Shown: positions 9,698 to 63,647, counted from the stretch's first letter. The stretch is DNA of 64,000 nt from an uncultured delta proteobacterium (GCA_963804955.1 CAWDSQ010000022.1:1-64000), one strand, 5' to 3'. Notes: generated from the letters alone by a model not told the origin. A program made the numbers and translations.

Positions 9698-10480
9698 CTA
9701 TTTCTTTCCTCCCGGATAGAGTATCTGAACGGCATGAAAGCCCTTTTCCTTGAAACCCCGGTTCATGATGACAATGCGCTCGGGCACGACTTTGGTGATG
9801 ATTTTGCCGGCCCTTATCATTTCTATCAGTGCGTCAACGGAGGGCGGCTGTGGCATGGTCGGGTTGGGTGCGGGCATGGGCAGCGTCGGAATATAAATTC
9901 GCGCGGCCTTTTCAAACTCGGGGTCTGTGCCCTGCAGCACGGTTGCTTTGCCCACAATCTGTACACCCAGTGCTGAGCCGAAGTAATCGTAGTTTTCGCG
10001 CTGCTTCATATAGGCCATGGATACATTTTGATTGGATGCCATCTGAAACAGCTTTTCCGTCTGCTTTTCAGACATGGCATAAAAGGTAAAGGTTGCGGGA
10101 TCGATCACGAATTCGATGACCGTTGCAAGGGGTTTGTTTTCATAGGACGTCGCCAGGGCATAAATCTCGCGGTAGTCTCCCTTGCCCTTGAGCGTATTCA
10201 ACACGGCCTCTTCGATTTCCTTGCGCGGGGCAGTGCCCTTTTTGCTTTTTTTCATGGCCATGGTGGCCGATGTGTAAGCATCAACGCCGTCATAGCTGTG
10301 GCAGTCCAGGCACTTCATTTTTTCATCATATACGCCGTGATGGGGCGGCTTTTTTGTGGGGGTCACGTACAGCCATTTCGGCCCGCCTTTTTCCCAAGCG
10401 GTCTGCTCAGCGGCATATGCACCGTTCTGAAGCAGCGCGGTTGCGGCAAGGGCAACCAGAATAACCAGAGTTTTTTTCAT
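9698..10480 (-). CDS. Exported pyridoxamine 5'-phosphate oxidase-like (split-barrel) protein with one CxxCH and a flavinylation-like motif
   Basis: Signal peptide ending AYA; 'CLDCH'; 'VDAYTSAT'; split-barrel pattern 'ALATSYENKP...TEKLFQMASNQNVS...GVQIVGKA'. Confidence 0.7.
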   Translation of the reverse strand: MKKTLVILVALAATALLQNGAYAAEQTAWEKGGPKWLYVTPTKKPPHHGVYDEKMKCLDCHSYDGVDAYTSATMAMKKSKKGTAPRKEIEEAVLNTLKGKGDYREIYALATSYENKPLATVIEFVIDPATFTFYAMSEKQTEKLFQMASNQNVSMAYMKQRENYDYFGSALGVQIVGKATVLQGTDPEFEKAARIYIPTLPMPAPNPTMPQPPSVDALIEMIRAGKIITKVVPERIVIMNRGFKEKGFHAVQILYPGGKK

Positions 10481-10749
10481 GTTCAGTTCCTCCAAAAAAT
10501 ATTAATAATTATAATTAATTGTTTGCTTACTAAGTATAGGGAAAATACAGGCTCTTGTCAAATATCTGCTTGGTTTTTCCAAAGAGAATAATATATGCAG
10601 AATAAAAATTTGCACACAAAAAAGTGTAAACACTAAAGATTAAAAATTGTTTTCCGAAATACTATTTCATGGTTTCACCGCGGCTTGGGAAAACAGCATT
10701 TCCTAAGGCATTCAAAAGAGATAAGCACATGCTTGCGCGAGAAAGAGCC

Positions 10750-16755: not shown

Positions 16756-17130
16756 GGGGTGCAATACGTGTCTGCGAATCGAAATCCAGAGTGCATATTT
16801 AGAGAGCCGTAATGTGGGATTTTTACAGGCAAGTAAGGGCACAACATATTGTGATTGCTTACCCTCCAATTTTTTCTAAAACACAGTGCAGTAATAAAAT
16901 CGTTTTAGCTGCATGTTTTGTCCGGAGCAGCGGTTTGCCGCCAGGCAGAGTTGATTCTAAAATAGAAAAAAACCAATTGACTGCCATGCGCAACGAGAGC
17001 ATAGAGTACTTGCGACTACAACCGTTAACCGAAAGCCAGGCGAAGCCTTATAGATGCAATTGCGCGACATTATTTAAAAATCGGCGCCCTTCTGCTGGTT
17101 GTGAAGATTTCCTTGGAGAGGAAGAGAAAA

Positions 17131-17853
17131 ATGAAAGAAGAGAAAAAAGACTTACTGAGATTCAATAAAATTTTACATGAAGAAATAGGCAGAAGCTTTG
17201 CATTAAGACCCCTTGATCTCCCCACGGATTTCAAACTCAGATATTCAGACAAAAAGGACACAAGCGTATACATCAAAAGTGAGTATCTGGGCTGCGATAA
17301 GACAGCGGGAGTACGCATGGGGGAAATGATTTTCGGAAAGTCCATGGTGGTTAATTTTGGCAGTGTGCCCCCGGCTCCCGGATATGATATCCCCATACTT
17401 GGATTTACATTTGTGCTTGCAGACAGGTTTCTCATATGCGTTCTTGATCTGCATCCTCTTTCAAAAAAAAGTGACTACATGGCGAGATACCTTGAGCCAC
17501 TGAAAAGCATTTCGGAAAAGTATCAATGGATACCAAAGGCCGAGGGCGGGCGCTCAGAGGTACATGAATGGGCAAAGGCTTATGACTCAGGTTTCTCGTT
17601 TTACCGCTGGTGTGACGGAGAGTATCTGCCAAACGTGGAGGAGGCGTTCAGGGAGTATGTTCTTGTTTTTTTGACCTGCATACAAAAAGCAGAGCTGATA
17701 ACCGACCCGGCAGTGCTTACGGAACATGAAGAGTATATGAAACAATACCGGTATGACTATGCGTATAAAGACCCGGGCGCTAATCCGCTGAAGCATCATT
17801 TCGGCGAAGTGTGGGGCGAGCGATACATGTCGGAATTTCTGTTTGCGCCATGA
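17131..17853 (+). CDS. Ferredoxin-dependent bilin reductase (PebA/PebB/HY2-like) family protein
   Basis: Collinear motifs 'YDIPILG', 'VLDLHPL...DYMARY', 'KDPGANPLKHHFGEVWGERYMSEFLF'; 240 aa. Confidence 0.8.
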   Translation: MKEEKKDLLRFNKILHEEIGRSFALRPLDLPTDFKLRYSDKKDTSVYIKSEYLGCDKTAGVRMGEMIFGKSMVVNFGSVPPAPGYDIPILGFTFVLADRFLICVLDLHPLSKKSDYMARYLEPLKSISEKYQWIPKAEGGRSEVHEWAKAYDSGFSFYRWCDGEYLPNVEEAFREYVLVFLTCIQKAELITDPAVLTEHEEYMKQYRYDYAYKDPGANPLKHHFGEVWGERYMSEFLFAP

Positions 17854-17975: not shown

Positions 17976-18891
17976 ATGGCAGAAATAAAATATTCAGATG
18001 AAGCTAAGGATGTTTGTGATAAATTCCTTGCCATTTTTCCAGGCGCAGGCAAAGAAGAAAACAGGATAAAAATAGTAAAAGCCGTGGAATACCATCTGCT
18101 GAAAAAAAATCTTGATGAAGCTACAAAAGATATTGTGCTGGAAGCGATAGAGAATGCCTTTCCCCGATCTTTTGCGCCTATAACCATGCGGTTCAGGGAT
18201 CCCAAATCACTCATGGAGCTTGCAGCCTCCCAAAAAAAGGTCAACTTGAAAAATCCCCTCGTCAAAGTGAGGCGCTGGGACCTGCCTCGTGTCAGGCTGG
18301 ACAGACCGGTAAAAAAAGTGCTTGCCCTGCTGGCCAGCCCCCGCAAGGGCGGTAATACAGACTGCATCATGGATGCGATGCTGGATGGCGTTCGGAAAGA
18401 GGGCTGCATTGTTGAGAAGTTTTATTTTTCCGATCTTACCATAGCGCCCTGCGCCGGATGCATGGCATGCGAAGCAAAGGAGCTTGAAAACTATTGCGCG
18501 ATACAGGATGACATGACGGACATGTATAGAAAATTTCTTGAGTACGACGGTTTTGTCATGGGATTTCCGGTGTACACGGCCCGTGAATGCAGCCAGGCTG
18601 CCGTATTTTTTGACCGCCTGAAAGCGTTGGGGACCAAAGGCCATTACAATAAACTGGGTAGAATCAGAAAAGGCGGCCTGGCGGTTACCTGGGGCTGGCC
18701 CTCGGATGACTCGTACAACCATGTTGTCGAAAATGCGGCGTTTGTCCTGAAGACTGTTTGGTGTGGAGACAACGGAGGTCGTCACCGGCTGCGGATTCTG
18801 GGAAGCCTATTATAAAAAAGGTACGGCAAAGATGGATAAAAAGGGCATGGCCGCTGCAAAACAAGCCGGCAGGGCATTGGTCACAGGATAG
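17976..18891 (+). CDS. Iron-sulfur flavoprotein / NADPH-dependent FMN reductase family protein with an extra N-terminal helical domain; frameshifted near the 3' end
   Basis: 'ASPRKGGNT', 'PCAGCMAC-x8-C', 'QDDM', 'GFPVY'. Confidence 0.85.
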
Positions 18892-27607: not shown

Positions 27608-29314
27608 ATGCAGCACGCACATTCCACCACATTGCCTGAGGTGCTCATCGCCTCAGGAAAAGTAACAGAAGACATCCTCAAAACGGTCATGCATGAAGAA
27701 GGCCTGCCACCCTATAAGGCCTGCCAGCGCCTGATCGACATGGGCTTTATTGCCGAGGAGGAGCTGCTGAAAATTTTCAGCCTGTATTTCAAGTATCCGT
27801 ATGTGTCGCTGAAAAATTTTCAGCCCAAGGATATCTTCATAGAGGGTGTGTCGGAAAACTTCATGCGCGAGTCCAAATGCGTACCCATTGAAATGAACGA
27901 TTCCTGCATGAAGCTCGCCATCAATAATCCTTTTGACGGGACCGCCCTTGATGCCGTTAGAATGGTCACCGGGCACGACATTGATGTGTGCCTTGCCAAG
28001 GACGCTGAAATATCTGATGCCATAGAAAAAATTTTCAGCACCGGCGCATCGGCCATGGACCGCCTGATTGAAAGCACCGGCGGCAGTGAGGGAGACGGGT
28101 TTTCCATGGATGACGATGGCGACGTGGCCCATCTGAAGGATCTTGCCTCCGAAGCGCCGGTCATACGGCTTGTGAACATGCTTATTTCGCGTGCCATAGA
28201 GCTCAAGGCCAGCGATATCCACTTTGAGCCCTTTGAAAAAAGCTTTCATGTGCGCTACCGCATCGACGGCGTGCTGCACGATATGGAATCGCCTCCCAAG
28301 AACCTTCAGGCCGCAGTCATTTCACGCATCAAGATCATGTCAAAGCTCAATATCGCCGAGCGCCGGCTGCCGCAGGACGGCCGCATCAAGCTGCGGGTCA
28401 TGGGCAAGGAGATCGATTTCCGCGTTTCTACGCTCCCGACTCTGTACGGCGAGAGCGTGGTCATGCGTATTCTTGACAGCGAGAGCATTGTTTTCGACCT
28501 TGACCTGCTGGGTTTCCCCACCCATGAGCTTCAGCACTTCGAAGACCTGATCAAAAGGCCGTACGGCATCATTCTGGTTACGGGCCCCACCGGCTCGGGC
28601 AAGACCACCACGCTCTACAGCGCCCTGAGCAAGATCAACAATAATGCAAACAAGATCATCACGGTCGAGGACCCGGTCGAGTACCAGCTGAGCGGCGTCA
28701 ACCAGATTCATGTCAAGCCCTCTATCGGCCTTACTTTTGCAAGCTGCCTGCGCTCGATCCTGCGGCAGGACCCCGATATCATCATGATCGGCGAAATCCG
28801 CGATGCCGAAACTGCCGAAATCGCCATTCATTCGGCCCTTACCGGCCATCTGGTGTTTTCGACCCTGCACACCAATGACTCCGCCGGCGCCGTGACGCGT
28901 CTGCTTGAAATGGGCATGGAGAACTACCTTGTATCCTCAAGTCTGCTGGGTATTATGGCCCAGCGGCTGGTCCGCGTCATCTGCACCAACTGCAAGGAAG
29001 AGTATCCTGCAACAGAAGAAATGCTGCGCGAGATGGGCCGGGACCCGGCAGGCGCCGGCAGCATTATGCTGGCCCGCGGCAGAGGCTGCGAGCACTGCGC
29101 CAATACGGGCTACCGCGGCAGGTCGGGCATCTATGAACTGCTGCTCATGCATGATGATGTGCGCAAGCTCATCCTTGCGCAGTCCGACAGCAAAGCCATC
29201 AAGGACCGGGCCCGCGAACTCGGCATGCAGACGCTGCGCGAAGCCGGCTGGGACAAGGTGATTGCTCAGGAGACCACGGTTGCTGAAGTCATCCGCGTGA
29301 CGCAGGTGGAATAG
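27608..29314 (+). CDS. gspE: Type II secretion ATPase GspE
   Basis: 'ASDIHFEP', 'ERRLPQDGR', 'GPTGSGKTTT', 'LRQDPDIIMIGEIRD', tetracysteine motif. Confidence 0.95.
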   Translation: MQHAHSTTLPEVLIASGKVTEDILKTVMHEEGLPPYKACQRLIDMGFIAEEELLKIFSLYFKYPYVSLKNFQPKDIFIEGVSENFMRESKCVPIEMNDSCMKLAINNPFDGTALDAVRMVTGHDIDVCLAKDAEISDAIEKIFSTGASAMDRLIESTGGSEGDGFSMDDDGDVAHLKDLASEAPVIRLVNMLISRAIELKASDIHFEPFEKSFHVRYRIDGVLHDMESPPKNLQAAVISRIKIMSKLNIAERRLPQDGRIKLRVMGKEIDFRVSTLPTLYGESVVMRILDSESIVFDLDLLGFPTHELQHFEDLIKRPYGIILVTGPTGSGKTTTLYSALSKINNNANKIITVEDPVEYQLSGVNQIHVKPSIGLTFASCLRSILRQDPDIIMIGEIRDAETAEIAIHSALTGHLVFSTLHTNDSAGAVTRLLEMGMENYLVSSSLLGIMAQRLVRVICTNCKEEYPATEEMLREMGRDPAGAGSIMLARGRGCEHCANTGYRGRSGIYELLLMHDDVRKLILAQSDSKAIKDRARELGMQTLREAGWDKVIAQETTVAEVIRVTQVE

Positions 29315-29322
29315 AGCAGTTT

Positions 29323-29435
29323 TGTTGGTTGTATTTGGTTTTATTAGTTCAATTGGTTTTTAACGAACTGAACCAATTAAACACAATTAAACCAATTGAA
29401 CCAATTAAACCAATCGAACCAATCGAACCAATCAA
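29323..29435. repeat. Nonamer tandem repeats (AACCAATYR) with an inverted copy upstream
   Basis: aaccaatta/aaccaattg/aaccaatcg about 7 times, preceded by TTGGTT-rich complementary arm. Confidence 0.75.
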
Positions 29436-29443
29436 CAGAGTCT

Positions 29444-30692
29444 ATGTCTGAATATATCTATAAAGCAACCGACCGCGCCGGCAAGGTGATGGAAGGCAGT
29501 TTTGATGCTCCGGATGAAGCTGCGGTGGTGAGCCGGCTGCGCGGCATGGGCTGTATCCCCATCCGCATCGAGCAGGCCGCAGCGGGCGCCAAGCCGCGAT
29601 CCCGCAAGATTTCGATCAATATAGATTTCAAAACCAGGGTTGTCATTAAAGTTCAAGCGGGTATCAGGCGCGGAGCTGCTTTCCTTTACGCAGGAGCTTG
29701 CGACTTTGATCCGGGCGGGCCTGCCGCTTGACCGCAGCCTCTCCGTGGTGACGGAGATAACGGAAAATGCAATGCTCAAGGACATCACCGAAGAAGTTCT
29801 GCGTGATGTCCGCGGCGGCAAAGCGTTTTCCGAAGCGCTGGCCAAGCACCCGGCAGTCTTCAACCGCCTCTATGTCAACATGATCAAGGCGGGGGAGGTG
29901 GGCGGCATTCTGGATGTGGTTCTTGACCGGCTGGTGGATTTTCTCGAGCGGTCGCAGGAGCTGAAGCGCACCGTCGTCGGCGCCATGATCTATCCGCTGG
30001 TGCTGATCTTCGTCATGGGCATCGTCATGGCCGTGCTGCTCATTTTTGTCGTGCCGCGGTTTGTCGGTATTTTTGAAATGATGCATCAGGAGCTGCCGCT
30101 TCCGACACAGGTGCTTCTGGGAATCAGCACGATCGCACAGCGTTTCTGGTGGCTGATTATCGGCGGCGGCATCGGCCTGTATGTCTGGTTTCAAAAGTAC
30201 ACCGCCTCGGAAAAGGGCAAGCTGGTCTGGGACACATTCATGCTCAAGCTGCCCCTGCTTAATGCGCTGATTTTGAAAATAGAAGTGGCGCGCCTCAGCC
30301 GCACGCTGGGCACGCTCATTACCAGCGGCGTGCCGCTTCTGCAGGCCCTGGGCATCGTGCGGGAAATTATCGGCAACCTGATCATTGCAAATTCCATAAA
30401 CACCATTCAAAAAGCCGTGAAGGAAGGCAAGGGCGTATCGCTGCCCATGCGCAGCCTGGGTATTTTCCCCTCCCTTGCCGTGCATATGATCCGCGTGGGC
30501 GAAGAAACAGGCAGAATGGAGGAGATGCTTATCCGCGTGGCCGACACCTATGACCGGGACGTGCAGGTGACGGTGAAACGGCTGCTCGGGCTGCTTGAGC
30601 CGCTGCTCATTCTGGTTATGGCGCTGCTGGTCGGCTTTATCGTTATCTCCATTGTTCTTGCGCTGTTCAGCATCAATGACGTTTCGTTTTAA
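29444..30692 (+). CDS. gspF: Type II secretion platform protein GspF, frameshifted
   Basis: 'FTQELATLIRAGLPL', 'AGEVGG', 'AMIYP', 'GEETG', 'LLEP'. Confidence 0.93.
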
Positions 30693-30702
30693 GGAGGATA
30701 CA

Positions 30703-31153
30703 ATGCAAATGAAGAATGAAAGAAAAGTGCTGTGTCAGCAGGGTTTTACCCTTGTTGAAATCATGATCGTTGTCGTTATTCTGGGTCTGCTCGTGGGGCT
30801 GGTCGGCCCCCGGGTGTTCGAGCGGTTTAAAAAGGCAGAACGCAATACGGCCAAGGCTCAGATCGAGATGCTCGCCACGACCGTCGATACCTTCCGGCTG
30901 GATATGCGCCGCTATCCTAAGGAGCTGGAGGAGCTGATGATAAAGCCTTCCGACGATAAAAACTGGGAAGGGCCGTATCTGAAAAAGGACCTGCCGACCG
31001 ACCCCTGGGATCATCCCTATATGTATAAGTGCCCGGGCGATGAAGGCAGGGATTATGACATCATCTCCCTACGGCGCTGATGGTCAGCCTGGAGGCGACG
31101 GAGAAAATGCCGATATCAATAATTGGGAAAGCCTCAAAAAAAGCAAGGAATAA
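30703..31153 (+). CDS. gspG: Major pseudopilin GspG, frameshifted near the 3' end
   Basis: 'GFTLVEIMIVVVILGLL', 'WEGPYL', 'DPWDHPY', 'YGADGQPGG'. Confidence 0.93.
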
Positions 31154-31736
31154 AAGCTGCCGGTTTCGCATGCCCGGTGGTTTTTCGCTTGTCGAGCTCA
31201 TGATCGTGCTGGCCATCATGGCCCTGGTGTTCGGCATGGCAGCGCCCCGCATAGCAAAAGAGATGGGTGTGCTGCATCTGCGCACAACGGCCAAACAGGT
31301 TGCCGCATCGCTTCGCTGGGCGCGAAGCCAGGCGCTCAGCACCGGCAAAACCTATAATGCAATATTTGACGGCAGCGGTCAGCGCGTCATTATTTCCGAT
31401 TATGCGGGATCGCTCGATGCCGCCGGCACGAAGCTTGCGGGATCCGCAGCTGAGGTGGCCGGCCGGGAAGAGGCGGAAAACATTGATGAAGCCATACCGA
31501 AGCAGGTGCTGAAGATATTTGAGCTGCCCGAGGATATTTTTATAAGCCGCATCGAGATAGCCGACGTGCTGGACGCAAACCCGGGAGAGCAGAGTATCTA
31601 CCAGCTGACATTTTTCCCTGATGGCACATCCATGGGGGGAGAAATAACCATTGCCGACGAACAAAAACGCTCATTTATCATTGGCGTTGATTTCCTCACA
31701 GGAATTGTCTCCCTTGAAGAGCCCGACACCATCTGA
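31107..31736 (+). CDS. gspH: Minor pseudopilin GspH/FimT
   Basis: 'GFSLVELMIVLAIM', 'ARSQA', 'FFPDGTSMGG'. Confidence 0.85.
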   Translation: MPISIIGKASKKARNKSCRFRMPGGFSLVELMIVLAIMALVFGMAAPRIAKEMGVLHLRTTAKQVAASLRWARSQALSTGKTYNAIFDGSGQRVIISDYAGSLDAAGTKLAGSAAEVAGREEAENIDEAIPKQVLKIFELPEDIFISRIEIADVLDANPGEQSIYQLTFFPDGTSMGGEITIADEQKRSFIIGVDFLTGIVSLEEPDTI

Positions 31737-32161
31737 CCTCCCGCTGCGGCCGCGGCTTTCCCGGCAGGGATTCACCCTGCTTGAAGTGCTGGTTGCCGTC
31801 ATGATTCTGGCCATTGCCGTTACCGCCATCCTTTCCCAGTTTTCTGCAGGCATGGAGGCGGGCGGCAAATCGCGCGACATCACCAGGGCTGTCCTGCTTG
31901 CCAAGGAAAAGCTGGAGGAGCTCAAAGCTTTTGTCGAGCAGCGGCGAGGAGGGGAAGTCCGGCACCTCCGACGACGGCTATGCCTGGCAAACCCGCGTGA
32001 GCCTGTATGAACTGCCGGAGAAAGAGGCGGGAGAAAACGAAAACGAGCTCTCTTTCGAGCTTTTGAAACTGACGGTCATCGTGCGCTGGAACACGGGGGT
32101 GCAGGAGCGGCAGATGGAGCTCTCCACCCTCAAAGCAGTCAAGAAAGAGGATCGGGAATGA
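31714..32161 (+). CDS. gspI: Minor pseudopilin GspI, frameshifted
   Basis: 'QGFTLLEVLVAVMILAIA'; position in the cluster. Confidence 0.82.
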
Positions 32162-32836
32162 TGCGGCCGGGCGCGGGGCATGCAGGTGTGGAAAGAGGCC
32201 GGGGCTTTACGCTTCTTGAGCTGCTGCTGGCCATCAGCATTTTTGCCGTCGTCGTTGCCGTGCTGTTTTCATCCTTCTGGGTCGGCATCGGCGCCTGGGA
32301 GAAAGGTGAAGCGGGCATTGAGTTCCAGCAGCGCATGCGCGCGGTGTCGGAGCTGATGTTCCGTGAAATTTCGTCGACCTATCCCTATTTTTTGACGCCG
32401 AGCCAGCTCGACAAGCATACAAGCTATGTCGCTTTTTTCGGTGAGCCCGATTCCCTCCGGTTTGTTTCCTACGCCAATTTACATAAACGGGCCAGCGGGC
32501 TGTGCATGCTTGAATTCTGGGTGTCTGAGCGCAGCGGGCTGCTGCTTGGCGAGGCCGCAGCTCTTGCCGCCAATAAGGAGGATTTCGACGCAGTGCCGCT
32601 GCGCAGCCCGGAATACGCGCCTTGAAATCTGCCGGGACGTGCAGGGGCTCCAGTTCCGGTACTTCGACCAGAAGAACGACGACGAGCCTGGCGAGTGGCT
32701 TGAGCGCTGGGATCCTGTCGAGATGCAGGGCATGATGCCAAAAATTATAGAGGTGACCCTGACATTTCTCGACCAGCGGGGCGAAGAGACAACGCAGCAG
32801 TTAATTATTCCGATTATGAGCAGTCTGCAAAAATAA
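32158..32836 (+). CDS. gspJ: Minor pseudopilin GspJ, frameshifted
   Basis: 'GFTLLELLLAISIFAVV'; C-terminal 'W...MPKIIEVTL'. Confidence 0.82.
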
Positions 32837-32862
32837 CCAGGCGTTTTTTAGTTTATTAACAC

Positions 32863-34057
32863 ATGAAAAGCCTTTTGTCCTCTCTATCATAATGAACGCG
32901 GCATTGCGCTGCTGCTGGTGCTGTGGGTCGTAACGCTGCTGGCGCTGATATGCGCAGAGTTTTCGGCCTCCATGCGCATCGAGACGGCTGTGGCGCGCAA
33001 TTTCAGGGACAGCGAGCAGGCCTATTATGCCGCCGAGGCAGGCATCAACCGGGCTATCATCGAAATTATGCGAACGGCGCGCTCGCCCTCGTCGCGCACG
33101 ACAACCTCTGACGATATCACCAATCTCGATAATCAGGATGCTGACGAGCAGGCCGATATTGAATACTGGACGGCGGGAGGCTCCTATGACATCAAAATTG
33201 ACGACATGCCCTGTCAGGTGGAGATTGTGGATGAAGGCAACAAGGTCGATATCAATGAATTTCTCAAGGATGCTAAAAAAAATCATGAGCTGCTGAAGCA
33301 GGTGCTGCGCAGGAAAATCGGCCTGGAGGGCGAAGACGTCGATATCGTCGCCGACAGCCTTATCGACTGGCGGGATGCTGATAATAACATAACCGGCGTC
33401 AATGGCGCAGAGGATGATTATTACAAGGAGCTCGACCCGCCCCGCTCTGTGCCGCAATGGCGACATCCCGGTCATCGAGGAGCTGCTGCTGGTGCGCGGC
33501 GTCGATGAACAGATCCTGTTTCGGCAGACGAGGCAGGCGCGAACAGAAAATAGAGCTTTCAACGGAGGATCTGGATGATATTCTCAGCGGCAGGGTGGCG
33601 CCGGAGGATGAGGATGTGGTTATTCCTGCCGAGGATGATGATGAGGCCGGCAAGCAGTATCTGGGCCTTATAGATATTTTCAGCGCGCCGCCTTCAGGTT
33701 TCGGCACAGGGGCAAAGGTAAATGCACAGGGCGATATCACGCTTAATATAAATACGGCAACAGCAGATCAACTGCTGCTGCTCAATGGCATGACGCCCGT
33801 GACCGCCGCCGATATCGTCTATGAGCGCAGGAAGCGGCTTTTTGCAGGCAAAGAGGACCGGCTGCCGTCCTTTAACAATTATTTCCGCTGGAAAGACAGC
33901 ATTACGGTAGGGTCGGGAGGCCGGTCCATGCGGGAACATGCTGCGCATTAATGCAGCCGGCTGCACGCCCGACGGACTTGTCTGCCGGCGCATCACCTGC
34001 ACGGTTCTGTTCAGCAGCACAAGGTACTTCATTCTCAGCTGGCGGGAAATAAACTGA
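32863..34057 (+). CDS. gspK: Minor pseudopilin GspK, frameshifted
   Basis: 'RGIALLLVLWVVTLL', 'DEGNKVDIN', 'SLIDWRDAD', 'GAEDDYY', 'ININTA'-like motif. Confidence 0.85.
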
Positions 34058-34126
34058 ATTTAATATTTGCCATTGACAGCCTTTGCGGGTACAATTGATT
34101 ATTTTTTAATGAAACAATAATACATT

Positions 34127-35705
34127 ATGCAGAGTATCGGCGTCGTTTTCAAACAGGAAGAGATGGTTCTGGTTGCCCTGAAGCAGGGCTTTGCCGACTA
34201 CCAGCTCGAGGGATACCGTATCCTGCCGTTTCTTGATCTGAAGGACGAGGAGCGGGACCAGGCCATAGTGCATAATATTGAGCGTTTTGTTCAGGCGCTA
34301 TGCGGGCGGCAAGGATAATATCTTCATTGCCCTGCCTCGCGACATGGCGCTGGTTCAGTTTCTGCAGATACCGGCCGCAGCTGAAGAAAATCTGGGAGCG
34401 ACGCTCGGTTTTGAGATAGACCGCTACACGCCGTTCGGCTTTGATGATGTGTATTATGACTGGCATGTCCTCAACCGCCTGCCCGACAGCGGCCTGATTA
34501 CCGTGATGCTTATCACCATGAAGCGCACGATTGTCGACTACTATCTCGGCCTGTTCGCCAAACTCGATATACGGCCCCAGGGCATAGAGATAACCACCAC
34601 GGCTCTGTGCAATGCATTTTCCAGGCATCCAGGGCGCACTGGACCGGCTGCAGGATATGTCCTGGCTTCAGGAAAGCGGCATCATAAACAACCGTATGCT
34701 GGGTCTGGTTGGAAAAATTGCCCCAAAGGCAGCCCGGTTTTTAGAGGGCGTGCAGGACAGGAAACCAGCAACACAGAATGTTGATGTGCTGGTTGAGTTT
34801 CTCGACGCTTCCCGCTGTGAAATTGCCGTCCTTGTCCACAACTGCTTATGCTCTTTCTCAGGTGGTGCCCCTGTCAGCGTCCGCCGAAGCCGTGCAGTTG
34901 CAGGAGATTCATGAGGCAGGGCACAGGTCCCTGATCTATCTGCCTGCCCTTGGCCAGGAGCGCAATCTGCCGCTGCGTTTTTGCCTGTCGGGCAGAGAAA
35001 TGCAGCCCGATTTTCTGGACACGGCGCCTGAATCTCTGGCCGGCTCTTTTTTCGTGCAGCGAACTCTGCCTGTCCAGCATAAGAAATTCGCCCATGACAC
35101 CATAGCCGGCGCGCTGCCGGTGCTGGCCATGCCTGCAGGCGTTGCCGTCAAGGGGCTGCGGAGCACCCCTTTTGATATCAATCTAATTCCTGCGGCGCGG
35201 CGTCCGAAACGCAAAAAGAGCAAGCGCAAACTGGTGGCAGCCGCAGCCTTTCTTGCTTTGCTGGTCGCACTGAGCACCTATACGGCGGCGCGCAACATGA
35301 AGATGAAGGAGCGCCTCAATGTGCTCACTGAGGAAGTGAACGGCCTGCGCAGGCAGGTGCAGACAATTGAGGAGCTGCAGCAGGAGTCTCAGCGCCGGGA
35401 AAAATTTGTCGCCGCCATGAAGACCATACGCGGCAACGACATGAGCAAACTGCGGATACTTGAAGAGCTGACGACGCCTGATACCCGACGACAGCTGGCT
35501 GAACGAATTAAACTATAAGGCTGAAGAGAAAAAAATAAGAATTTCCGGCTTTGCCGTATCTGCGGCCAAGCTTATCCCCATTCTTGAAGAATCACCGCTG
35601 TTTGACGGCGTAAAATTTTCCACCGTCATCACCACGGACAGGCGCAGCGAAAAAGAGCGCTTCAGGATTGAGATGAATCTGAGCGGAAACACGGCCAAAC
35701 AATGA
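34127..35705 (+). CDS. gspL: GspL/PilM-PilN-like assembly protein, frameshifted
   Basis: 'FEIDRYTPF', 'INLIP' before a TM segment, coiled coil, PilN-like 'ISGFA...LEESPLF'. Confidence 0.7.
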
Positions 35706-36268
35706 AGCTCTCTAAACGCGATAAAAAACTCATCATCGCCGGCGCTGTAGCCGTAGCGATTTTTTGCCATTCTTAAATTCGGACTTTTTCCTGTATACGA
35801 CACCTTTGTTGAGCGCCGCAAAGAGATTGCACAGAAGGAGAAAACCCAAGAGAAATATCTCAAGTTTCTCAAGGAACAGGCCGATTTTCAGAAGAGTGGG
35901 AAGGACAGGGGCAAGGAAGAGGTTTTGGTGCAGCAAAGCCTTCTGAAGGGGGAAACTGCGTCCCTTGCCGCCGCCGATATTCAGAAGATAGTTGACGGGT
36001 TCGCCAAGGAGAGCAAGGTCGACATGCAGAGCGTGAAGGTGCTCGACTCGGACACCAAGGACGACTTTGTGGTCATTCCAGTCCAGATATCCTTTTCTTC
36101 AGACCTGACTCGACTGGTGAAATTCGTGCAAAGCATTGAAACGGACAAGAAGCTGCTGACGATTCCTGAGCTGAAAATCAGGGTCAAAAACGAACATGAA
36201 GCCGCAGGATGTATCGGTGACGCATGACGGTTGCCGGCTACATGAAAAAAGGGGAAAACAGGAAGTAG
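35702..36268 (+). CDS. gspM: GspM/PilO-like protein, frameshifted
   Basis: 'MKLSKRDK' + TM segment; ferredoxin-like 'LVKFVQSIE'. Confidence 0.7.
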
Positions 36269-36288
36269 GAAGGCGAGACTGAGGATTC

Positions 36289-38605
36289 ATGCGTTTATTT
36301 AAGATACGTTTCATGGCTGTGCTGCTGGCGGTTGCGCTTACGGCGTGCTCTGCTTTTAACGGACAGGTTGCACAGACTGACGATACGCTCCAGGACGGAG
36401 CGGCATTAGGCGATCAGGTCAAAGCTCCGGGCATCCCCGCTGCTTCAGCGCCTGCTCAGGCCGGGAAAAAATCAGATGCGCCCCTGCGCACAGCAGACCC
36501 CGTCCTGAAGGGCATACCCGTCCAATCAGCATCAAGGGCAATGCCCGGCCTTGGCAAAGATGCAGCTCAGGGAGAAGCCCCTGCATGCCGGCTCCGACAA
36601 TGCAAGCAGCCAGGGCCGCGGGGCTATGATAGCGCTTAATTTCGACAATGCCGATATTTTTGAAGTTATCAATGCCCTGTCGGACTTTCTTGATATAAAC
36701 TATATTATTGACCCTGCGATCAAGGGCAAGGTCAATATCCACACCACCAGCGAAGTTGACAAGCGCCAGCTGCTGTCCATTCTTGAAACAATTTTTGAGA
36801 TGAACAATATCTCTGTGGTCAAACAGGGCGAATTCTATAAAATTTTGCCGTCCAAGGATGCCCAGAAACAGGGGGTTCAGGTGGGCATGGGCCGCGATAT
36901 TGATAAGCCCGACTCACCAGACCGCATGGCAATTCAAATTATACCCCTGAAATATGTTCCGTCTGCAGAGGTCGTCAAGGTTATCAAGCCGTTTTCCAGC
37001 AAAAACGGCGAGATGGTTGAATTCACCAAGGCCAATATCATCATCCTGTTTGATACTGTTGCCAATATTCAGAAAATCGTTACGCTGGTCAATGTTATCG
37101 ATTCCGATGCATTTGAAAACAATGAAATTCGCTTTTTTAAGGTAAAAAACGCCAATGTTACGGATTTAGCCAAGGAGCTGGAGGGTATATATCACGTCCC
37201 TTGGCATTGAGAAGGCAACCGGCAAGGGGATCGGCCTTGCCGTGGTGCCTGTGGAGCGGGCCAGCATTGTTGTGGCCGTAAGCCCCATACCGGGAGTGCT
37301 TGACCAGATGCAGCACTGGGTTGATGTGCTTGATACGATCGACAAGGATGCCGACGAGCAGATATTCATTTATTTTGTAGAAAACGGCAAATCCGAGGAA
37401 ATAGCAGATATCCTGGTTCAGCTGTACGGCGGCGAAGCCTCGAACCGCTCGGGCGAAGACAGAAATGCACGTAGAAAAAGCAGAGACAGTTCATCAAAAT
37501 GGAGCAGCGCAAGCGGCCAGCGGCGCGATAGTTCAAGCGGCACCGGCACCGGCTCGCAGCAGCAGCTCCAGCAGATCAAAAGCCAGCGCCACAGGCGCCA
37601 AGGCCAAGACAAGCAGCTATATTGGAAAACAATATTATGATCGTGACCGATGAGGCCACCAATGCCATCATCGTCAGGTCGAACTCTCAGGACTATGCCA
37701 AGATCAGGGAGACCATTCAGCGGCTGGATATCATTCCGCGGCAGGTGCTCATAGAGGTTTTCATAGGCGAGGTGGGGCTGTCTGGAGATACTCAGTTCGG
37801 CGTCGAGTGGGCCCTGCTCCAGAACAATGACAAGCTGGGCGGCTACAAGGGCTCCAGCAAATCAGGGCAGAATTTCGGGGCGGGGCTTGATGCTGCCCTT
37901 GATCCGACCGCAGCGGCCAGCGTCGGGTTCACCTATCTGTTTCAATCAGATCGCCTGCAGGCATTTTTGATCGCTCAGGCCAGCAATAACAAGCTCAATA
38001 TTCTTTCAACGCCCAATATCATAGCCTCCGACAATAAAGAGGCGCGCATCGAGGTCGGCGAGGAAGTTCCCATCGTCACCAGCGAATATGTGCCCCTTGA
38101 TACCTACGGAACAGGAACCGCAACCAACAGCTTCAACTCAACATCCCGCTCCATCGAATACCGCAACACGGGCATTATTCTTGAGGTGACGCCACGCATC
38201 AATGAAAAGGGCCTGGTTGCCATGGATATCAGCCAGGAGGTGAGTAAAGCCCAGCCCATCACTGCAAGCGGCATCCAGTCGCCCACCATCACCAACCGCC
38301 TGGCCGAAACATCGGTTGTGGTGCAGGATGGCAAAACAGTGGTGATCGGCGGCATTATCAATAATGAGGGAACCTCAACCCAAAGCGGCATACCCTATCT
38401 TTCAAAAATTCCGCTCCTGGGGTATCTGTTCAGCTACACGACGGACGGCACCTCGAAACGCGAGCTCATTATCATGCTCACGCCCCATGTTATCAAGGAC
38501 ATTGGCGAAGCCGGTGCAATAACCGAAGAGTACAAGTCAAAGATGACAGAAATCAGAAGGCTGTTGAAGCGCGACGAGGGCGAATGGGCGAAAACCTATC
38601 AGTAA
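36289..38605 (+). CDS. gspD: Type II secretion secretin GspD, frameshifted
   Basis: 'LNFDNADI', 'DEATNAIIV', 'RQVLIEVFIGEV', 'YRNTGIILEVTPRI', 'IPLLGYLF'. Confidence 0.93.
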
Positions 38606-59535: not shown

Positions 59536-61878
59536 GTGAAGAAGTTTTCAGAACTTATCGTGCGTCACAGGGTAAGTATCCTGATCCTCATCGGTCTGAT
59601 CACAGCCTTTTTTCTGTATGAATGCACACATCTTACCCTGAAGGCCGACTTTAACAGCCTTCTCCCGCAAAAACATCCATTCATAAAAGTTCACAATATG
59701 ATCCGCAATATTTTCGGCGGCGCCAACCAGGTGCTCATCATGGTGCAGGTGCGCAAAGGAGATATTTTCAACCAGAAGACTCTGGAAAAGGTTCAGTGGA
59801 TTACCCGCGAAGCTGAAAAGATACCCGGGGTCGATCCTTACAAAATAAGGTCCCTGGCTTCATCAAAGCTTAAAGATTTTAAATTCAGCGCAGGGTCAAT
59901 GGCCATCAATACGCTCATGTTCCCCGATCTGCCCAAAAACGACCAGGAGATGCAGGAGCTGAAGGACAAGATTTTCAGCAATCCGCGATACTATGGGCAG
60001 TACGTGGCCTATGACAGTAAAAAAACGCTGGTCATGGTTGATTTTTTTGAACAGGACCTTGATTACAATACTATTTTTAAGATGCTGAGCAGCATACGGG
60101 AGCATACTGAAGACGAAAACCACATCATAAGCATTGGCGGTGAGCCCATGCACATGGGCTATGTCTATCAGAGCACGCCGGAGGTGCTGGGTATCATTGC
60201 CGTTACGATATGCGCAGTTATTATCATGCTGTTTGTCTATTATCGAAGCATGCGTGCTGTTATTGCCCCTCTGCTGGCTGCGGCAATAAGCACGGTCTGG
60301 GGTTTGGGCTTTATGGGGCTTATGCGCTATAATCTTGACCCCCTTATTCTGGTGATTCCGTTTTTTCTCGCTCTCATGACCGTGCCCCATGCCATGCAGT
60401 GCATCACCCGGTTTATGGAAGAGTATGAACAAGTAAGAAATATGAAACAAGCGGCAGCTCAGACCATTGAGGCGCTGTTTCTCCCCGGGGTCACCAGTGT
60501 GGTCACTGATGCCCTCGGCATAGCCCTGGTTGCTATCGCGTCCATACCGATTCTTATTGATATTGCCATTACATCGGTATTCTGGTGTATTGCCGCCGCG
60601 ACTATTCTTTCTCTTATTATGACCCCCCTTCTTCTTTCGTTTATTCCTGAAAGCAAACGGCTGCGAAAAGCTTTGGAAGAAAAAATGGAGCACAATCGCA
60701 GTGACTACCGGACAAGATTGCTCTCGGCAATCGGAAACTGGATACCGCAAAAGGGGAAATGGTATATTGTTATTCTTGCCGTTATTATTTCAAGCGTGGG
60801 AATCTTTTATGCCCGGCAGATTCAGATCGGGGATTTCATGCCCGGCTCGTCAATACTCTGGCCTTTTCACCGGTATAATAAAGATGCCTTCAGGATTACA
60901 TTCAGCATACCGCTGCTCAACCCCCTGTATATCATCGTTGAGGGAACTGAAGGCGGTTATATATCCAAGGGGTCTACGCTTCGCGAGATTGACAAATTTC
61001 AGCGCTACATTGCCAAACACGACAGAGTGATGTTCACCTATTCGATTGCAAACAATCTCCCCGGTTTTTTTATGTCGTCCAATGAAGATGACCCCCAGTG
61101 GTGCCATCTGCCCAAGGATGACAGGACATTGAGCTTTATCTGCCGAAGGCTTCTCTATGCCGGCGAGCCCGGCACCTGGGACCGCTATGTGGATATGCAG
61201 GACAAATACGGGAATATCGTTGTGTACTGCAGGGACAAAATGCCCGCAACCGTTCAAAGCATTACAGACTATATAAAAAAATATCTGGAACAGACACCCG
61301 GCCCGCCGGGAGGCAAGTATCTGCTGGCAGGCGGAGCTGTGGGTGTTCAGGCGGGCATTCGCGACGTGATTGCCGATTCGCAGGTGTTAAACCTGGTGCT
61401 GGCGCTTTCAGGAGTATTTCTTTTCTGCGTGCTTGTTTTCAGGTCACTGTGGGCAGGGGTTATTCTCGTTCTGCCACTTACGGTTGCCAATGTCATCACC
61501 TTTGCCCTTATGGGCGCTTTTCATATCGGATTAACGACCAACACGTATCCCATAGCATCCATCGGCATCGGGTTCGGCGTGGACTACGGCATCTATCTGA
61601 TGAGCCGCCTTATTGAGGAGCGGAAAAAAGGATACGTGCTTAACGAGGCAATCCGGCAGGCTCTTACAACAAGCGGCCGGGCAGTTTTTCAGGTTTCGAC
61701 AACCCTGACCGTCGGGCTTCTGCTGTGGATGTTTTCAGCCTTGAAGTTTCAGGCCGAGATGGGCGTGCTGCTGGCGATTCTGCTGCTTCTAAATATGCTC
61801 GGCGCAATTTTTCTTGTGCCGACCCTGATTTGTTTTATAAAGCCGAAATTCCTTATGCGGATACAGAAGGCGGCATAA
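59536..61878 (+). CDS. MMPL/RND family transporter
   Basis: Two repeats of TM + periplasmic + 5TM; 'FGGAN', 'SVVTDALG', 'GIGFGVDYGIY', 'LKFQAEMG'. Confidence 0.9.
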   Translation: MKKFSELIVRHRVSILILIGLITAFFLYECTHLTLKADFNSLLPQKHPFIKVHNMIRNIFGGANQVLIMVQVRKGDIFNQKTLEKVQWITREAEKIPGVDPYKIRSLASSKLKDFKFSAGSMAINTLMFPDLPKNDQEMQELKDKIFSNPRYYGQYVAYDSKKTLVMVDFFEQDLDYNTIFKMLSSIREHTEDENHIISIGGEPMHMGYVYQSTPEVLGIIAVTICAVIIMLFVYYRSMRAVIAPLLAAAISTVWGLGFMGLMRYNLDPLILVIPFFLALMTVPHAMQCITRFMEEYEQVRNMKQAAAQTIEALFLPGVTSVVTDALGIALVAIASIPILIDIAITSVFWCIAAATILSLIMTPLLLSFIPESKRLRKALEEKMEHNRSDYRTRLLSAIGNWIPQKGKWYIVILAVIISSVGIFYARQIQIGDFMPGSSILWPFHRYNKDAFRITFSIPLLNPLYIIVEGTEGGYISKGSTLREIDKFQRYIAKHDRVMFTYSIANNLPGFFMSSNEDDPQWCHLPKDDRTLSFICRRLLYAGEPGTWDRYVDMQDKYGNIVVYCRDKMPATVQSITDYIKKYLEQTPGPPGGKYLLAGGAVGVQAGIRDVIADSQVLNLVLALSGVFLFCVLVFRSLWAGVILVLPLTVANVITFALMGAFHIGLTTNTYPIASIGIGFGVDYGIYLMSRLIEERKKGYVLNEAIRQALTTSGRAVFQVSTTLTVGLLLWMFSALKFQAEMGVLLAILLLLNMLGAIFLVPTLICFIKPKFLMRIQKAA

Positions 61879-62021
61879 CAGGAAGTGCGCACGATGCGTG
61901 CAGAGGAATGGTACATGCCTATGGCCTTTTTTAATGATCCCAAAATAAACGGGAGCGCCCATGATGTATCGCTCAGGAAGGGTACACAAACAAGGCAACA
62001 CGAGAAAAGGGGGATGATGGT

Positions 62022-63647
62022 ATGAAAGCAAAACAGGTAGTTGTTTTTTCCATGCTGGCGCTTATGGGCGCTTATTTCATTCTGCCCGGATACTGCTTTG
62101 CCTCGCTGATGCTTTTTGATGACAAGCTGCGGGTCAAGGGGTCGGTATATGAATTCGGCATGTACATGACCAAGCTCACGCCGAATGACAAGCAGTACAA
62201 CAATAATAACTGGGGCCTGATGCGGACGAAGGGAACGCTGGAGCTTCTGTACAATGCCTATGAGCAGGGAGATACCAATTTCAACCTGTTCGGCTTTTTT
62301 CAGTATTGGCATGAGTCGTCTTCCGATTTTGACGGGGCAATCAAAGACTCCATGACCTCGCGCTCGCGCCGCCATTACCAGGGGCCCAATGAGCGGGCCG
62401 ACGACTGGATCAATGAGCTGTATGCCGACTTCTATAAAGGGCCCTGGAACATCCGGGTCGGCAAGCAGATCGTTTTCTGGAGCGAAGTTGAGATGGTGCG
62501 CACCATCGACCGGATCAACCCGCTTGACCTGCGGTATACAACACCCGGCATCGACCCCTTTGATGAAATGAAGCTGGGGCTGTGGATGGTGCGGGGCTTT
62601 TACACCTCGGACCTGCCGGGGCAGCTTGTCTTTGAAGGCATCTGGACTCCTGATTTCCAGCGGGTCAGAACACCGCTCGAAGGGACCGCCATGGGCAGCA
62701 ATCCCGGGCCGCAGGGCCCCGAGAAGCTCAGGCCCCGCGCCTACGGCCAGAATGCCGCTATCGACACCATGTTCCGCCATGACATGCCGGATATCAGTTT
62801 GAAAAATACAACGTTTGCCTTCAGGGTCAAGGGCACGTCGCAGCTGCCGTACAACTATCTTTTGGACTGGTCTCTGAGCTGGTATCACGGCATGAACACA
62901 ACGCCGGTTGCCGAGGGCGATACGCTCGGCTATCCCAACTCACTGAACCTTAATACGAACACCTTAAACGGCTATCTGGACAATCTTGCCGTCAGCCGCG
63001 TGTTCGGCGCAAAGCACCTGCCCGGCTTGAACAATAAAGATTTCTGGGACTATAAATATTTTGACGCCGTCGGCGCAAGCGGCCAGACCTTTGTCCCCTG
63101 GCTGAAAGGCGTGCTGCGCGGCGAGGTGTCCTATGAAATCGGGGTGCCCGAAAACAAGGCATTTACAAAAGATATTGACGACAGCCCGTCATACTCAAAG
63201 GTGATAACCGGCACGACGGAACGCGACCAAATCAATGTCGGAATAACTTTTGACCGGCCCCTCAGGTGGGAGTGGCTGCAAAATCAGACCTGGCTGGCCT
63301 CGAGCGGCATTATAGACACCACGGTCGGCTGGTTCGCCCAGCGGCGCCAGGGAGATGTTAAGCGCATACGAAGAACATTCGGCTATTATGACCGGTCAGC
63401 CAGTCAAACTGGACCCTCACTATGCGGGGCAATTTATGGCATAACGAACTGTATCCCTACGGTGCGTTTTCTCTACAATTCAAGAAACTGGGGCTATGGT
63501 GTGGCTGCGCTGCGCTATCAGCCGGGCAAGCATATGCGCTATGAAATGGGTTACACATGGTTTTTCGCCAAAGAACCCTGGGATTCACCGGAAGCATACA
63601 GCGAAAACAAGGATTTTGCCTATTTCAGGATAGGCTATGAATTCTAA
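62022..63647 (+). CDS. DUF1302-like outer-membrane beta-barrel protein
   Basis: Signal peptide, 'ELYAD', 'IRVGKQIVFW', 'DRINPLDL', C-terminal 'RIGYEF'; position between the MMPL and DUF1329-like genes. Confidence 0.72.
   Translation: MKAKQVVVFSMLALMGAYFILPGYCFASLMLFDDKLRVKGSVYEFGMYMTKLTPNDKQYNNNNWGLMRTKGTLELLYNAYEQGDTNFNLFGFFQYWHESSSDFDGAIKDSMTSRSRRHYQGPNERADDWINELYADFYKGPWNIRVGKQIVFWSEVEMVRTIDRINPLDLRYTTPGIDPFDEMKLGLWMVRGFYTSDLPGQLVFEGIWTPDFQRVRTPLEGTAMGSNPGPQGPEKLRPRAYGQNAAIDTMFRHDMPDISLKNTTFAFRVKGTSQLPYNYLLDWSLSWYHGMNTTPVAEGDTLGYPNSLNLNTNTLNGYLDNLAVSRVFGAKHLPGLNNKDFWDYKYFDAVGASGQTFVPWLKGVLRGEVSYEIGVPENKAFTKDIDDSPSYSKVITGTTERDQINVGITFDRPLRWEWLQNQTWLASSGIIDTTVGWFAQRRQGDVKRIRRTFGYYDRSASQTGPSLCGAIYGITNCIPTVRFLYNSRNWGYGVAALRYQPGKHMRYEMGYTWFFAKEPWDSPEAYSENKDFAYFRIGYEF

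Follow-up and report, generated by a model that had tools for sequence, protein, structure and literature searches.

In ferredoxin-dependent bilin reductases (FDBRs) the tetrapyrrole is held between a sheet and the C-terminal helices, and ferredoxin supplies the electrons for its reduction one at a time. In the canonical pathway an FDBR works with a haem oxygenase and a biliprotein, and the other known enzymes with this fold, RCCR (PDB 2zxk, 3aga) and the O2-dependent HemF/CPO, act with or after O2-dependent steps. All characterised families of the fold act on tetrapyrroles (PMC13193486, section 7). Here we describe a member of the family, P0001, encoded in a stretch of 64,000 nucleotides from an uncultured delta proteobacterium (GCA_963804955.1, CAWDSQ010000022.1:1-64000), hereafter the window, whose host genome (G000, 87% complete with 2.16% contamination) appears to be that of a non-photosynthetic anaerobe. 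The gene and the site preceding it are:

17131..17853, + strand: FDBR-fold protein P0001, 240 aa (from profile, structure, alignment and tree)
17115..17121, + strand: Shine-Dalgarno-like GGAGAGG, 9 nt 5' of the ATG (read directly)

There is precedent for active FDBRs in non-phototrophs, deltaproteobacteria included, in the PcyA and pre-PcyA enzymes of heterotrophs (PMC10151467, PMC13446030). The pre-1 and pre-3 enzymes have an acidic central residue and are found clustered with haem oxygenase and with bilin-binding globins, whereas P0001 has Gly64, Phe76 and Thr93 in its active site and no haem oxygenase was found in its genome. The nearest named relatives are FDBR-like proteins of Ca. Schekmanbacteria (the OGL42116 cluster, the OGL42193 cluster and RMF92493 = D6734_12105), which like P0001 come from non-phototrophs and are uncharacterised; they are separated from the clade of P0001 by a long branch (0.93, support 100/100), and their three sequences carry an Asp in place of the central Thr of P0001. 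Schekmanbacteria sequences have been put in an outgroup alongside RCCR (PMC10151467), and elsewhere D6734_12105 is listed as "Unknown" (Table S1) and two uncharacterised clades are described as being of uncertain placement (PMC13193486).

The wider lineage has therefore been glimpsed before, but we found no published text on the clade of P0001 or on the expansion described below. The accessible literature on bilin reductases and Schekmanbacteria does not, as far as we could find, describe an expansion of paralogues, a clade from deltaproteobacteria or an anaerobic pathway, whilst published supplementary trees and figures may include the sequences, and the term "desulfo" occurs 0 times in the FDBR texts searched for it. 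What is new here is the placement of the clade, its active-site subtypes, the mutual exclusion of dsrA and the FDBR expansion, and the co-expansion of HemF-like proteins. The main interest lies in a deep FDBR from an apparent anaerobe, together with a class-wide co-expansion of three tetrapyrrole-enzyme folds in genomes where sulfate respiration was not found.

Fold and family membership

P0001 matches the Pfam family Fe_bilin_red (PF05996) with 115.2 bits (cut-off 31, E 4.6e-33) over positions 4-227 of the 228 in the profile, and its sequence matches among solved structures are Guillardia PEBB (E 6e-15), Synechococcus PebA (5e-12), tomato HY2 (2e-8) and PcyA (1e-6). An AlphaFold model built from a 62-row alignment (pLDDT 92.7, pTM 0.91) has the alpha/beta/alpha sandwich fold and overlays on PebB (6qwq) with a Z score of 27.4 and a root mean square deviation (rmsd) of 2.3 over 231 residues, followed by HY2 (27.3), PebA (27.0) and PcyA (26.1), with rmsd 1.9-2.4 over 226-231 residues throughout. 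TM scores of 0.81-0.84 were obtained against PebB, HY2 and PebA, and Foldseek is in agreement. RCCR (Z 22.8) and CPO (17.5) are more distant and the next unrelated row scores 5.6, so that P0001 is structurally nearer to the FDBRs than to the other enzymes of the fold; RCC_reductase (PF06405) leaves P0001 unmatched at E 0.01 and gives 0 matches across the host genome. The FDBR assignment, which a first-pass annotation had made by eye from the DNA alone, is thus borne out by profile and structure.

That annotation had drawn a specific likeness to PebA, and here the picture changes. The three PebA motifs that it pointed out all reappear when P0001 is aligned with PebA 2x9o, P0001 and PebA/PebS (PDB 2x9o, 2vck) agree in motif order, length and fold, and PebA is the best NCBIfam model; however, all NCBIfam scores fall far short of their cut-offs (PebA 92.1 bits against 263, PebB 66.5 against 327, PcyA 46.5 against 206). 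The best sequence and structure matches are to PebB/HY2 (PDB 6qwq, 6qx6, 6kmd, 6kme), with which P0001 shares the distal Asp, and of which land-plant HY2 is also without the central Asp, but identity is only 22-26%, Phe76 stands at the Asp116 site of HY2 and Tyr210 replaces Arg215/Arg252. P0001 is thus no nearer to PebA than to PebB/HY2. By the tests run it is a real, intact and uncharacterised variant of the FDBR family, and not a PebA, PebB/HY2, PcyA or RCCR.

The open reading frame (ORF) runs from ATG 17131 to TGA 17853 with 0 internal stops, as first annotated, and is intact in a window where many other ORFs carry frameshifts. An alternative in-frame GTG at 17101 would give a protein of 250 aa, but as 61 of 63 homologues measure 238-247 aa the ATG is the likely start. 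The GC content of the gene (45%) is under that of the genome (52%) and inside the 40-56% span of seven paralogues. Longer or fused forms of P0001 were not seen among 7998 candidates (0 found), which is a weak negative, and a homodimer prediction scored 0.00, which is not evidence for or against a dimer.

Two atlas clusters have scores of 0.94-0.95. One is rich in Actinomycetota and its labels are a mixture of Fe_bilin_red (69%) and RCC_reductase (27%); the other is unnamed and has 59 members (Bacillota, from the 2 whose phylum is known). Both may possibly be further non-phototroph lineages; even atlas cluster scores of 0.96 are weak, atlas recognition being low (1690).

Orthologues and phylogenetic position

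Among 200 candidates that were scored there are 63 homologues of P0001, at 54-89% identity; the 61 full-length ones and P0001 form an alignment of 62 rows (A1), from which two fragments were excluded and in which 34 columns are invariant and mean column identity is 69%. The lineage was followed in 41 genomes, that is G000 and 40 relatives, most of them incomplete, and orthologues of P0001 occur in 16 of these, across four families. By genome record the 16 loci are from "delta proteobacterium" or "Thermodesulfobacteriota bacterium" (11), "Proteobacteria bacterium" (3), "Deltaproteobacteria bacterium" (1) and "uncultured bacterium" (1), and we take the host to belong to the Desulfobacterota. The closest orthologue, 93% identical, is in a deltaproteobacterial genome record, and with orthologues in so many relatives the gene is native rather than a contaminant from a phototroph. 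It is an old yet accessory gene.

Trees were made with FastTree (222 rows) and IQ-TREE (75 rows chosen from those, LG+C20), both unrooted and without RCCR, the references being the NCBIfam-labelled sequences among 116 profile hits plus annotated phage PebS and PcyA. Both recover PebA/PebS (100/97), PebB/HY2 (100/98) and a PcyA-like group (97/87), this last with six reference rows of which three are unlabelled and were assigned as pre-PcyA-like by tree position. In both trees the clade of P0001 (100/100 in IQ-TREE) lies outside all three groups, and the approximately unbiased (AU) test, applied to groups defined after the trees were seen, rejects its placement inside PebA/PebS (p 0.0037), PebB/HY2 (p 0.00044) and the PcyA-like group (p 0.00037). 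With the NCBIfam scores, the trees and these three rejections, the suggestion that P0001 is a divergent FDBR outside the characterised clades holds. A position as sister to PebA plus PebB ("pre-PebA") is absent from the best tree but is not rejected by the AU test (p 0.058).

Beyond the three known branches, the nearest relatives of the clade are P0065, P0066 and P0067 (98/95), and next P0086 (98/76). P0067, P0072 and P0086 belong to the Ca. Schekmanbacteria clusters, the 98/95 node being the join to the OGL42116-cluster representative and the 98/76 node that to D6734_12105 (= P0086), and the three Schekmanbacteria rows do not form one clade. Two further ideas about the tree were dropped. That the known FDBRs are nested in a radiation from anaerobes appears as a one-sided split in FastTree (88), but the node is unresolved in IQ-TREE and the nesting is not shown, and rooting on CPO-like proteins was abandoned at a profile comparison probability of 0.5%.

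The active site

Taking PebS of P-SSM2 as the reference for numbering, Thr93 of P0001 corresponds to Asp105, Phe76 to Asn88, Asp214 to Asp206 and Asp106 to Asp119, and Table 2 of PMC13446030 ties these sites to Asp105 and His88 of PcyA and to Asn133, Asp116 and Asp256 of AtHY2. Gly64 sits at Glu76 of PcyA, Phe76 at His88 and Thr93 at Asp105, and Tyr210 at Arg215 of PebB. Two pairwise alignments place Asn75, not Phe76, at the His88 site; the ungapped register and covariation lead us to favour Phe76 as its probable occupant.

The aspartates of the VLD and DP motifs were noted at first reading as kept, and Asp106 and Asp214 are invariant in 62/62 rows. Asp214 is the equivalent of HY2 Asp256 and PEBB Asp219, so that P0001 has the distal Asp of PebB/HY2, which is the A-ring proton relay in HY2, PEBB and PebS (bioRxiv 2022.08.22.504806). 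The Asp of the PebA "GVDLL" motif had been read as Thr, and this is so in P0001 itself, but it is not a property of the whole clade: Thr is present in 48 of the 62 rows and Asp in the other 14, with Thr paired with Phe76 and Asp with Tyr76 in every row. On the tree this covariation comes down to only 2 changes, and the pairing is broken at one locus not included in A1 (L023/L066), which has Phe76 alongside Asp93. The two subtypes are separated by just 3 diagnostic columns. As both occur in one genome (G028), there are hints that Phe76/Thr93 and Tyr76/Asp93 forms do different jobs.

The central Asp-84 is essential in PebA (PMC6755814; Asp105 in PebS), and since this is the residue that P0001 has lost, its resemblance to PebA is not functional. 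Tyr210, also found in 62/62 rows, takes the place of an Arg strictly conserved in PebB/HY2 (Arg215/Arg252) and essential for the selective A-ring reducers (PMC6755814), which weakens a reading of P0001 as an HY2-like A-ring reductase. The HY2 of land plants has Asn at the central site and is active (PMC13446030; bioRxiv 2022.08.22.504806). A set of the type Gly64/Phe76/Thr93/Tyr210 was not found among the characterised FDBRs in Table 2 of PMC13446030. As a speculation, Trp160 may replace a propionate-binding Arg, which would point to a substrate of the chlorophyll type with one propionate.

Paralogues and class-wide expansion

A feature beyond the first-pass annotation is that G000 contains about 16-17 paralogous genes of this kind, P0001 among them, and this is part of an expansion that spans the class. 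Fe_bilin_red gives 10 matches in G000, 8 above cut-off, and a custom iterated profile finds 11 intact FDBR ORFs and pieces of about 5-6 more; P0001 is the top-scoring at 115 bits, against 62 or less for the others. One paralogue (L013:6599-7585, G000:C20:76598-77587) is fused to an N-terminal two-cluster 4Fe-4S ferredoxin and is followed by a second, frameshifted FDBR gene, with relatives of like length in other genomes, and P0167. Another (L010:7083-7859, G000:C32) has a hydrophobic N-terminal stretch, possibly a membrane anchor, with a flavodoxin-domain protein and a geranylgeranyl-reductase-like flavoprotein upstream.

The neighbours of the paralogues include MMPL/DUF1302/DUF1329/YCF48 cassettes, PNPOx-like split barrels, NmrA-like reductases, flavodoxin-domain proteins, geranylgeranyl-reductase-like flavoproteins (below cut-off), aldehyde:ferredoxin oxidoreductase (AFOR), ETF, a ferrochelatase-like protein and SDR. 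For families picked after the neighbourhoods had been inspected, 6 of 14 FDBR loci in G000 have a DUF1329 gene within 8 kb (random 0.53), 3 a CxxCH split-barrel gene, the one in the window included (0.34), 4 a small split-barrel gene (0.7) and 4 an AFOR gene (1.2; 20 copies), and four control families show no excess there. About 20 AFOR loci are present in G000, and AFOR directly adjoins several FDBR genes (L034, L024, L031); as a guess, its substrate could be an aldehyde such as the formyl group of a chlorophyll catabolite. ORFs without a Pfam or NCBIfam match (607, 229, 220 and 410 aa) lie directly upstream of FDBR paralogues (L011:4792-6612; L015:5429-6774; L014:7826-9055).

Across the lineage, 31 of the 41 genomes hold 6-22 FDBR matches each, and these fall by family (15/16 in f1, 4/4 in f2, 10/10 in f4 and 1/1 in f5, against 0/8 in f3 and 0/1 in f6). 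In an even phylum sample of 401 genomes, 13 had matches above cut-off, all from the class of P0001, and 388 did not. Many paralogue subfamilies in the FastTree analysis are represented in several families, hence the expansion is older than the family split.

The partners of the canonical bilin pathway were not found. It had been noted that the window has no haem oxygenase, phytochrome or phycobiliprotein gene, and this extends to the whole genome as searched: profile searches of G000 found no haem oxygenase, HemS, phycobiliprotein, type II reaction centre, COX1 or bd oxidase (type I reaction centres were not searched), each of these families giving matches in control genomes, and the absence of the reaction centre, haem oxygenase and the two oxidases agrees with the view of the host as a non-photosynthetic anaerobe. 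Haem oxygenase (PF01126) and PHY are each found in 0/41 genomes and the phycobilisome family in 0/1 (G000), with BBAG globins not searched. The ring opener HutW/ChuW passes its cut-off in 0/41 genomes (matches of 145-261 bits against 400). Of the 31 FDBR-positive genomes, 2 have matches to the COX1 family.

Within the class dsrA and the FDBR expansion are mutually exclusive, with dsrA above cut-off in 0/31 FDBR-positive and 5/10 FDBR-negative genomes; no dsrA was found in G000, where the highest score is 25.5 bits (cut-off 393). Other tetrapyrrole-enzyme folds follow the expansion. HemF/CPO-family proteins are in 29/31 FDBR-positive genomes, with 1-6 matches each, and in 0/10 FDBR-negative ones, and a ferrochelatase-like protein, 63-89% conserved across four families, is in 31/31 and 1/10 respectively. 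Weak RCCR-family matches occur in 13/41 genomes, none in G000. In family f4, L138-L140 have RCC_reductase above cut-off, at loci other than those of the Fe_bilin_red matches listed for G030. The HemF/CPO-like loci are separate from the FDBR loci, and there are three such genes in G000 (further loci are L142-L145):

G000:C5:239677-240498: HemF/CPO-family gene
G000:C5:13264-14298 (L038:6265-7209): HemF/CPO-family gene
G000:C15:20598-21447: HemF/CPO-family gene

A "candidate CPO", MCX5884553, was used in PMC13193486, and its number is near that of an orthologue of P0001, MCX5887101; this is a hint only.

Possible function

On balance we lean slightly towards P0001 being a reductase that is driven by ferredoxin and belongs to an anaerobic network for processing imported tetrapyrroles, which perhaps serves as an electron sink. 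P0001 would be a soluble, single-domain enzyme, dependent on ferredoxin or flavodoxin, for which the ferredoxin fusion of one paralogue is indirect evidence. In its tetrapyrrole-derived substrate one double bond would take up two electrons and two protons. Candidate substrates are open-chain bilins or phyllobilins and rings that are partly reduced or demetallated, which the host would import and not make. From what is known of the family the chemistry would be a radical two-electron reduction with Asp214 as proton relay, like HY2 Asp256 and PEBB Asp219, and the low-potential electrons may come from AFOR- or PFOR-type enzymes through ferredoxin or flavodoxin. The paralogues may cover different pigments or successive bonds, P0001 being one accessory specificity variant, and the partners for O2-free pigment processing would be HemF/CPO-like, ferrochelatase-like, split-barrel and flavin enzymes with the MMPL/DUF1329 envelope cassettes. 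With a Thr93/Phe76 floor, this subtype is predicted not to carry out the 15,16-reduction of biliverdin made by PebA.

The role in hosts without dsrA or oxidases might be disposal of reducing equivalents, catabolic entry or both, by analogy with gut BilR (PMC10769871), which reduces scavenged bilin anaerobically and for which bilirubin has been proposed as a terminal or anaerobic electron acceptor. BilR is an analogy only, as it has the unrelated Old Yellow Enzyme fold, flavin/hydride chemistry and a gut host. The first-pass annotation had suggested a different substrate or regiospecificity, for instance in the scavenging of bilins or chlorophyll catabolites, and we infer such scavenging by the host.

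Several points weigh against this reading, its weakest links being the ring-opening step, the two lost catalytic-site residues and a gene without context. No ring-opening enzyme was found among HutW (0/41 genomes) and HemS (0 in G000). Catalysis is not assured, as the central Asp and the Arg of the A-ring reducers are both gone, and regiospecificity in FDBRs is poorly predicted by phylogeny (PMC13193486). No conserved operon was found around the orthologues of P0001, the commonest neighbour family being at 5 of 28 loci (some overlapping), and within 8 kb of P0001 there is no DUF1329 or ferrochelatase-like gene. Pigment import through the MMPL cassettes is putative, and the direction could be import or export. 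The occurrence of P0001 is patchy (16/41 genomes; 4/16 in the host family), the families in the proximity counts were picked afterwards, and the co-occurrences track families (f1, f2, f4 and f5 against f3 and f6), so that they represent one or two events and not 41.

The lost residues could also mean that the Thr93/Phe76 subtype is a non-catalytic binder or carrier in the same network, which buffers or channels toxic pigment. P0001 has other residues in place of the two polar floor residues and of the PebB Arg, and a D-to-N change at the central site of a pre-3 FDBR led to co-purification of haem/protoporphyrin IX with most activity gone (PMC13446030); but D91N of pre-2 retained activity and plant HY2 has Asn there (PMC13446030; bioRxiv 2022.08.22.504806), Asp214 is invariant, and the subtypes differ at so few columns that we regard a pure binder as unlikely. 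It would seem rather improbable that the fold was recruited to a hydrophobic or heteroaromatic substrate other than a tetrapyrrole, reduced in an anaerobic degradation pathway. The generic neighbours of the paralogues (MMPL/DUF1329/YCF48, SDR, AFOR and the geranylgeranyl-reductase-like proteins below cut-off) and the strong divergence of active-site residues among the paralogues would fit such a recruitment, whereas FDBR-, CPO- and ferrochelatase-like folds are all expanded in the same genomes and we know of no non-tetrapyrrole substrate for the FDBR fold.

MMPL/RND proteins are usually exporters, and together with the HemF-like and ferrochelatase-like folds, which are biosynthetic in known pathways, and the strong conservation of the ferrochelatase-like protein in four families, this could speak for an endogenous modified tetrapyrrole (a cofactor, metallophore or electron shuttle) made by the paralogues and exported via MMPL, with P0001 as a tailoring reductase. 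We consider this quite improbable, as 6-22 scattered and variably kept paralogues fit a broad substrate range better than a single product and P0001 is in no conserved operon. Hardly tenable is an ordinary chromophore synthase of the PebA, PebB or PcyA type, or a contig from a contaminating phototroph. PebA is the top NCBIfam model and some databases auto-label homologues as 15,16-dihydrobiliverdin:ferredoxin oxidoreductase, but the 92 bits are far below the cut-off, the AU test rejects all three placements, and haem oxygenase, PHY, phycobiliprotein and type II reaction centre were not found; a contaminant is countered by the orthologues in relatives and the low contamination of the genome.

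A broader and doubtful extension may be sketched. An uncultured, Desulfobacterota-type class of anaerobes without dsrA would live on tetrapyrroles scavenged from haem and chlorophyll as both electron sink and food, with successive reductions carried out by a set of FDBR-, RCCR- and HemF-fold enzymes. The radiation of these enzymes would be deeper than all characterised FDBRs together, an "archae-FDBR" pool that gave rise to the oxygen-linked enzymes, contrary to the proposal that the fold originated only after oxygen, with the clade of P0001 as its most FDBR-like remaining paralogue.

To our knowledge, how remains of chlorophyll and haem are turned over by microbes without oxygen is poorly known, and a literature search of titles and the starts of abstracts found none naming enzymes for their anaerobic breakdown. 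Pigment scavenging, if true, would supply organisms and enzymes for this process, and would offer a new use in place of lost sulfate respiration in a deltaproteobacterial class. P0001 is a candidate predicted to be soluble and is well conserved, comes from genomes where no oxygen-linked bilin pathway was found, and offers a natural variant pair in Phe76/Thr93 and Tyr76/Asp93.

Neighbouring genes and other features of the window

P0001 lies apart from the FDBR/transporter islands of G000. Two nearby genes may be linked with it:

17976..18815, + strand: NADPH-dependent FMN reductase/flavodoxin-like ORF with an extra N-terminal part (Pfam FMN_red, 52 bits)
9698..10495, - strand: CxxCH-bearing PNPOx-like split-barrel protein with a leader, 6.6 kb upstream (Pfam and motif)

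The FMN_red ORF is possibly the electron donor of P0001, a weak link; the same order is found only in the 93%-identical relative (L018), with a homologue nearby in L030. The genome has the CxxCH split-barrel in 6 copies, of which the closest immediately follows the FDBR on C5, and a 30%-identical homologue is directly upstream of orthologues in L021, L024, L026 and L040; a link with P0001 is circumstantial. The AFOR and CxxCH split-barrel neighbour families are each present at 4-5 of 28 orthologue loci. An MFS transporter with a C-terminal PCP_red domain (protochlorophyllide reductase tail; the domain scan was done in L018 alone) lies near orthologues of P0001 at L018:2254-3840 (-) and L019:8656-10260 (+).

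A promoter scan gave 5 sites against 3.6 +/- 2.1 in shuffles, which is not beyond chance. Between 11618 and 26472 of the window many ORFs are split by apparent frameshifts (a peptide-binding protein, a GDSL lipase, methyltransferases and a multihaem cytochrome), as on other contigs, and these are likely to be assembly errors. Further along the window are type II secretion genes E, F, G and D, some of them frameshifted (27608-38602, + strand), and, 42 kb from the FDBR gene, an MMPL-family gene followed by a 541-aa ORF without a Pfam match (59536-63644, + strand), which is probably another envelope cassette.
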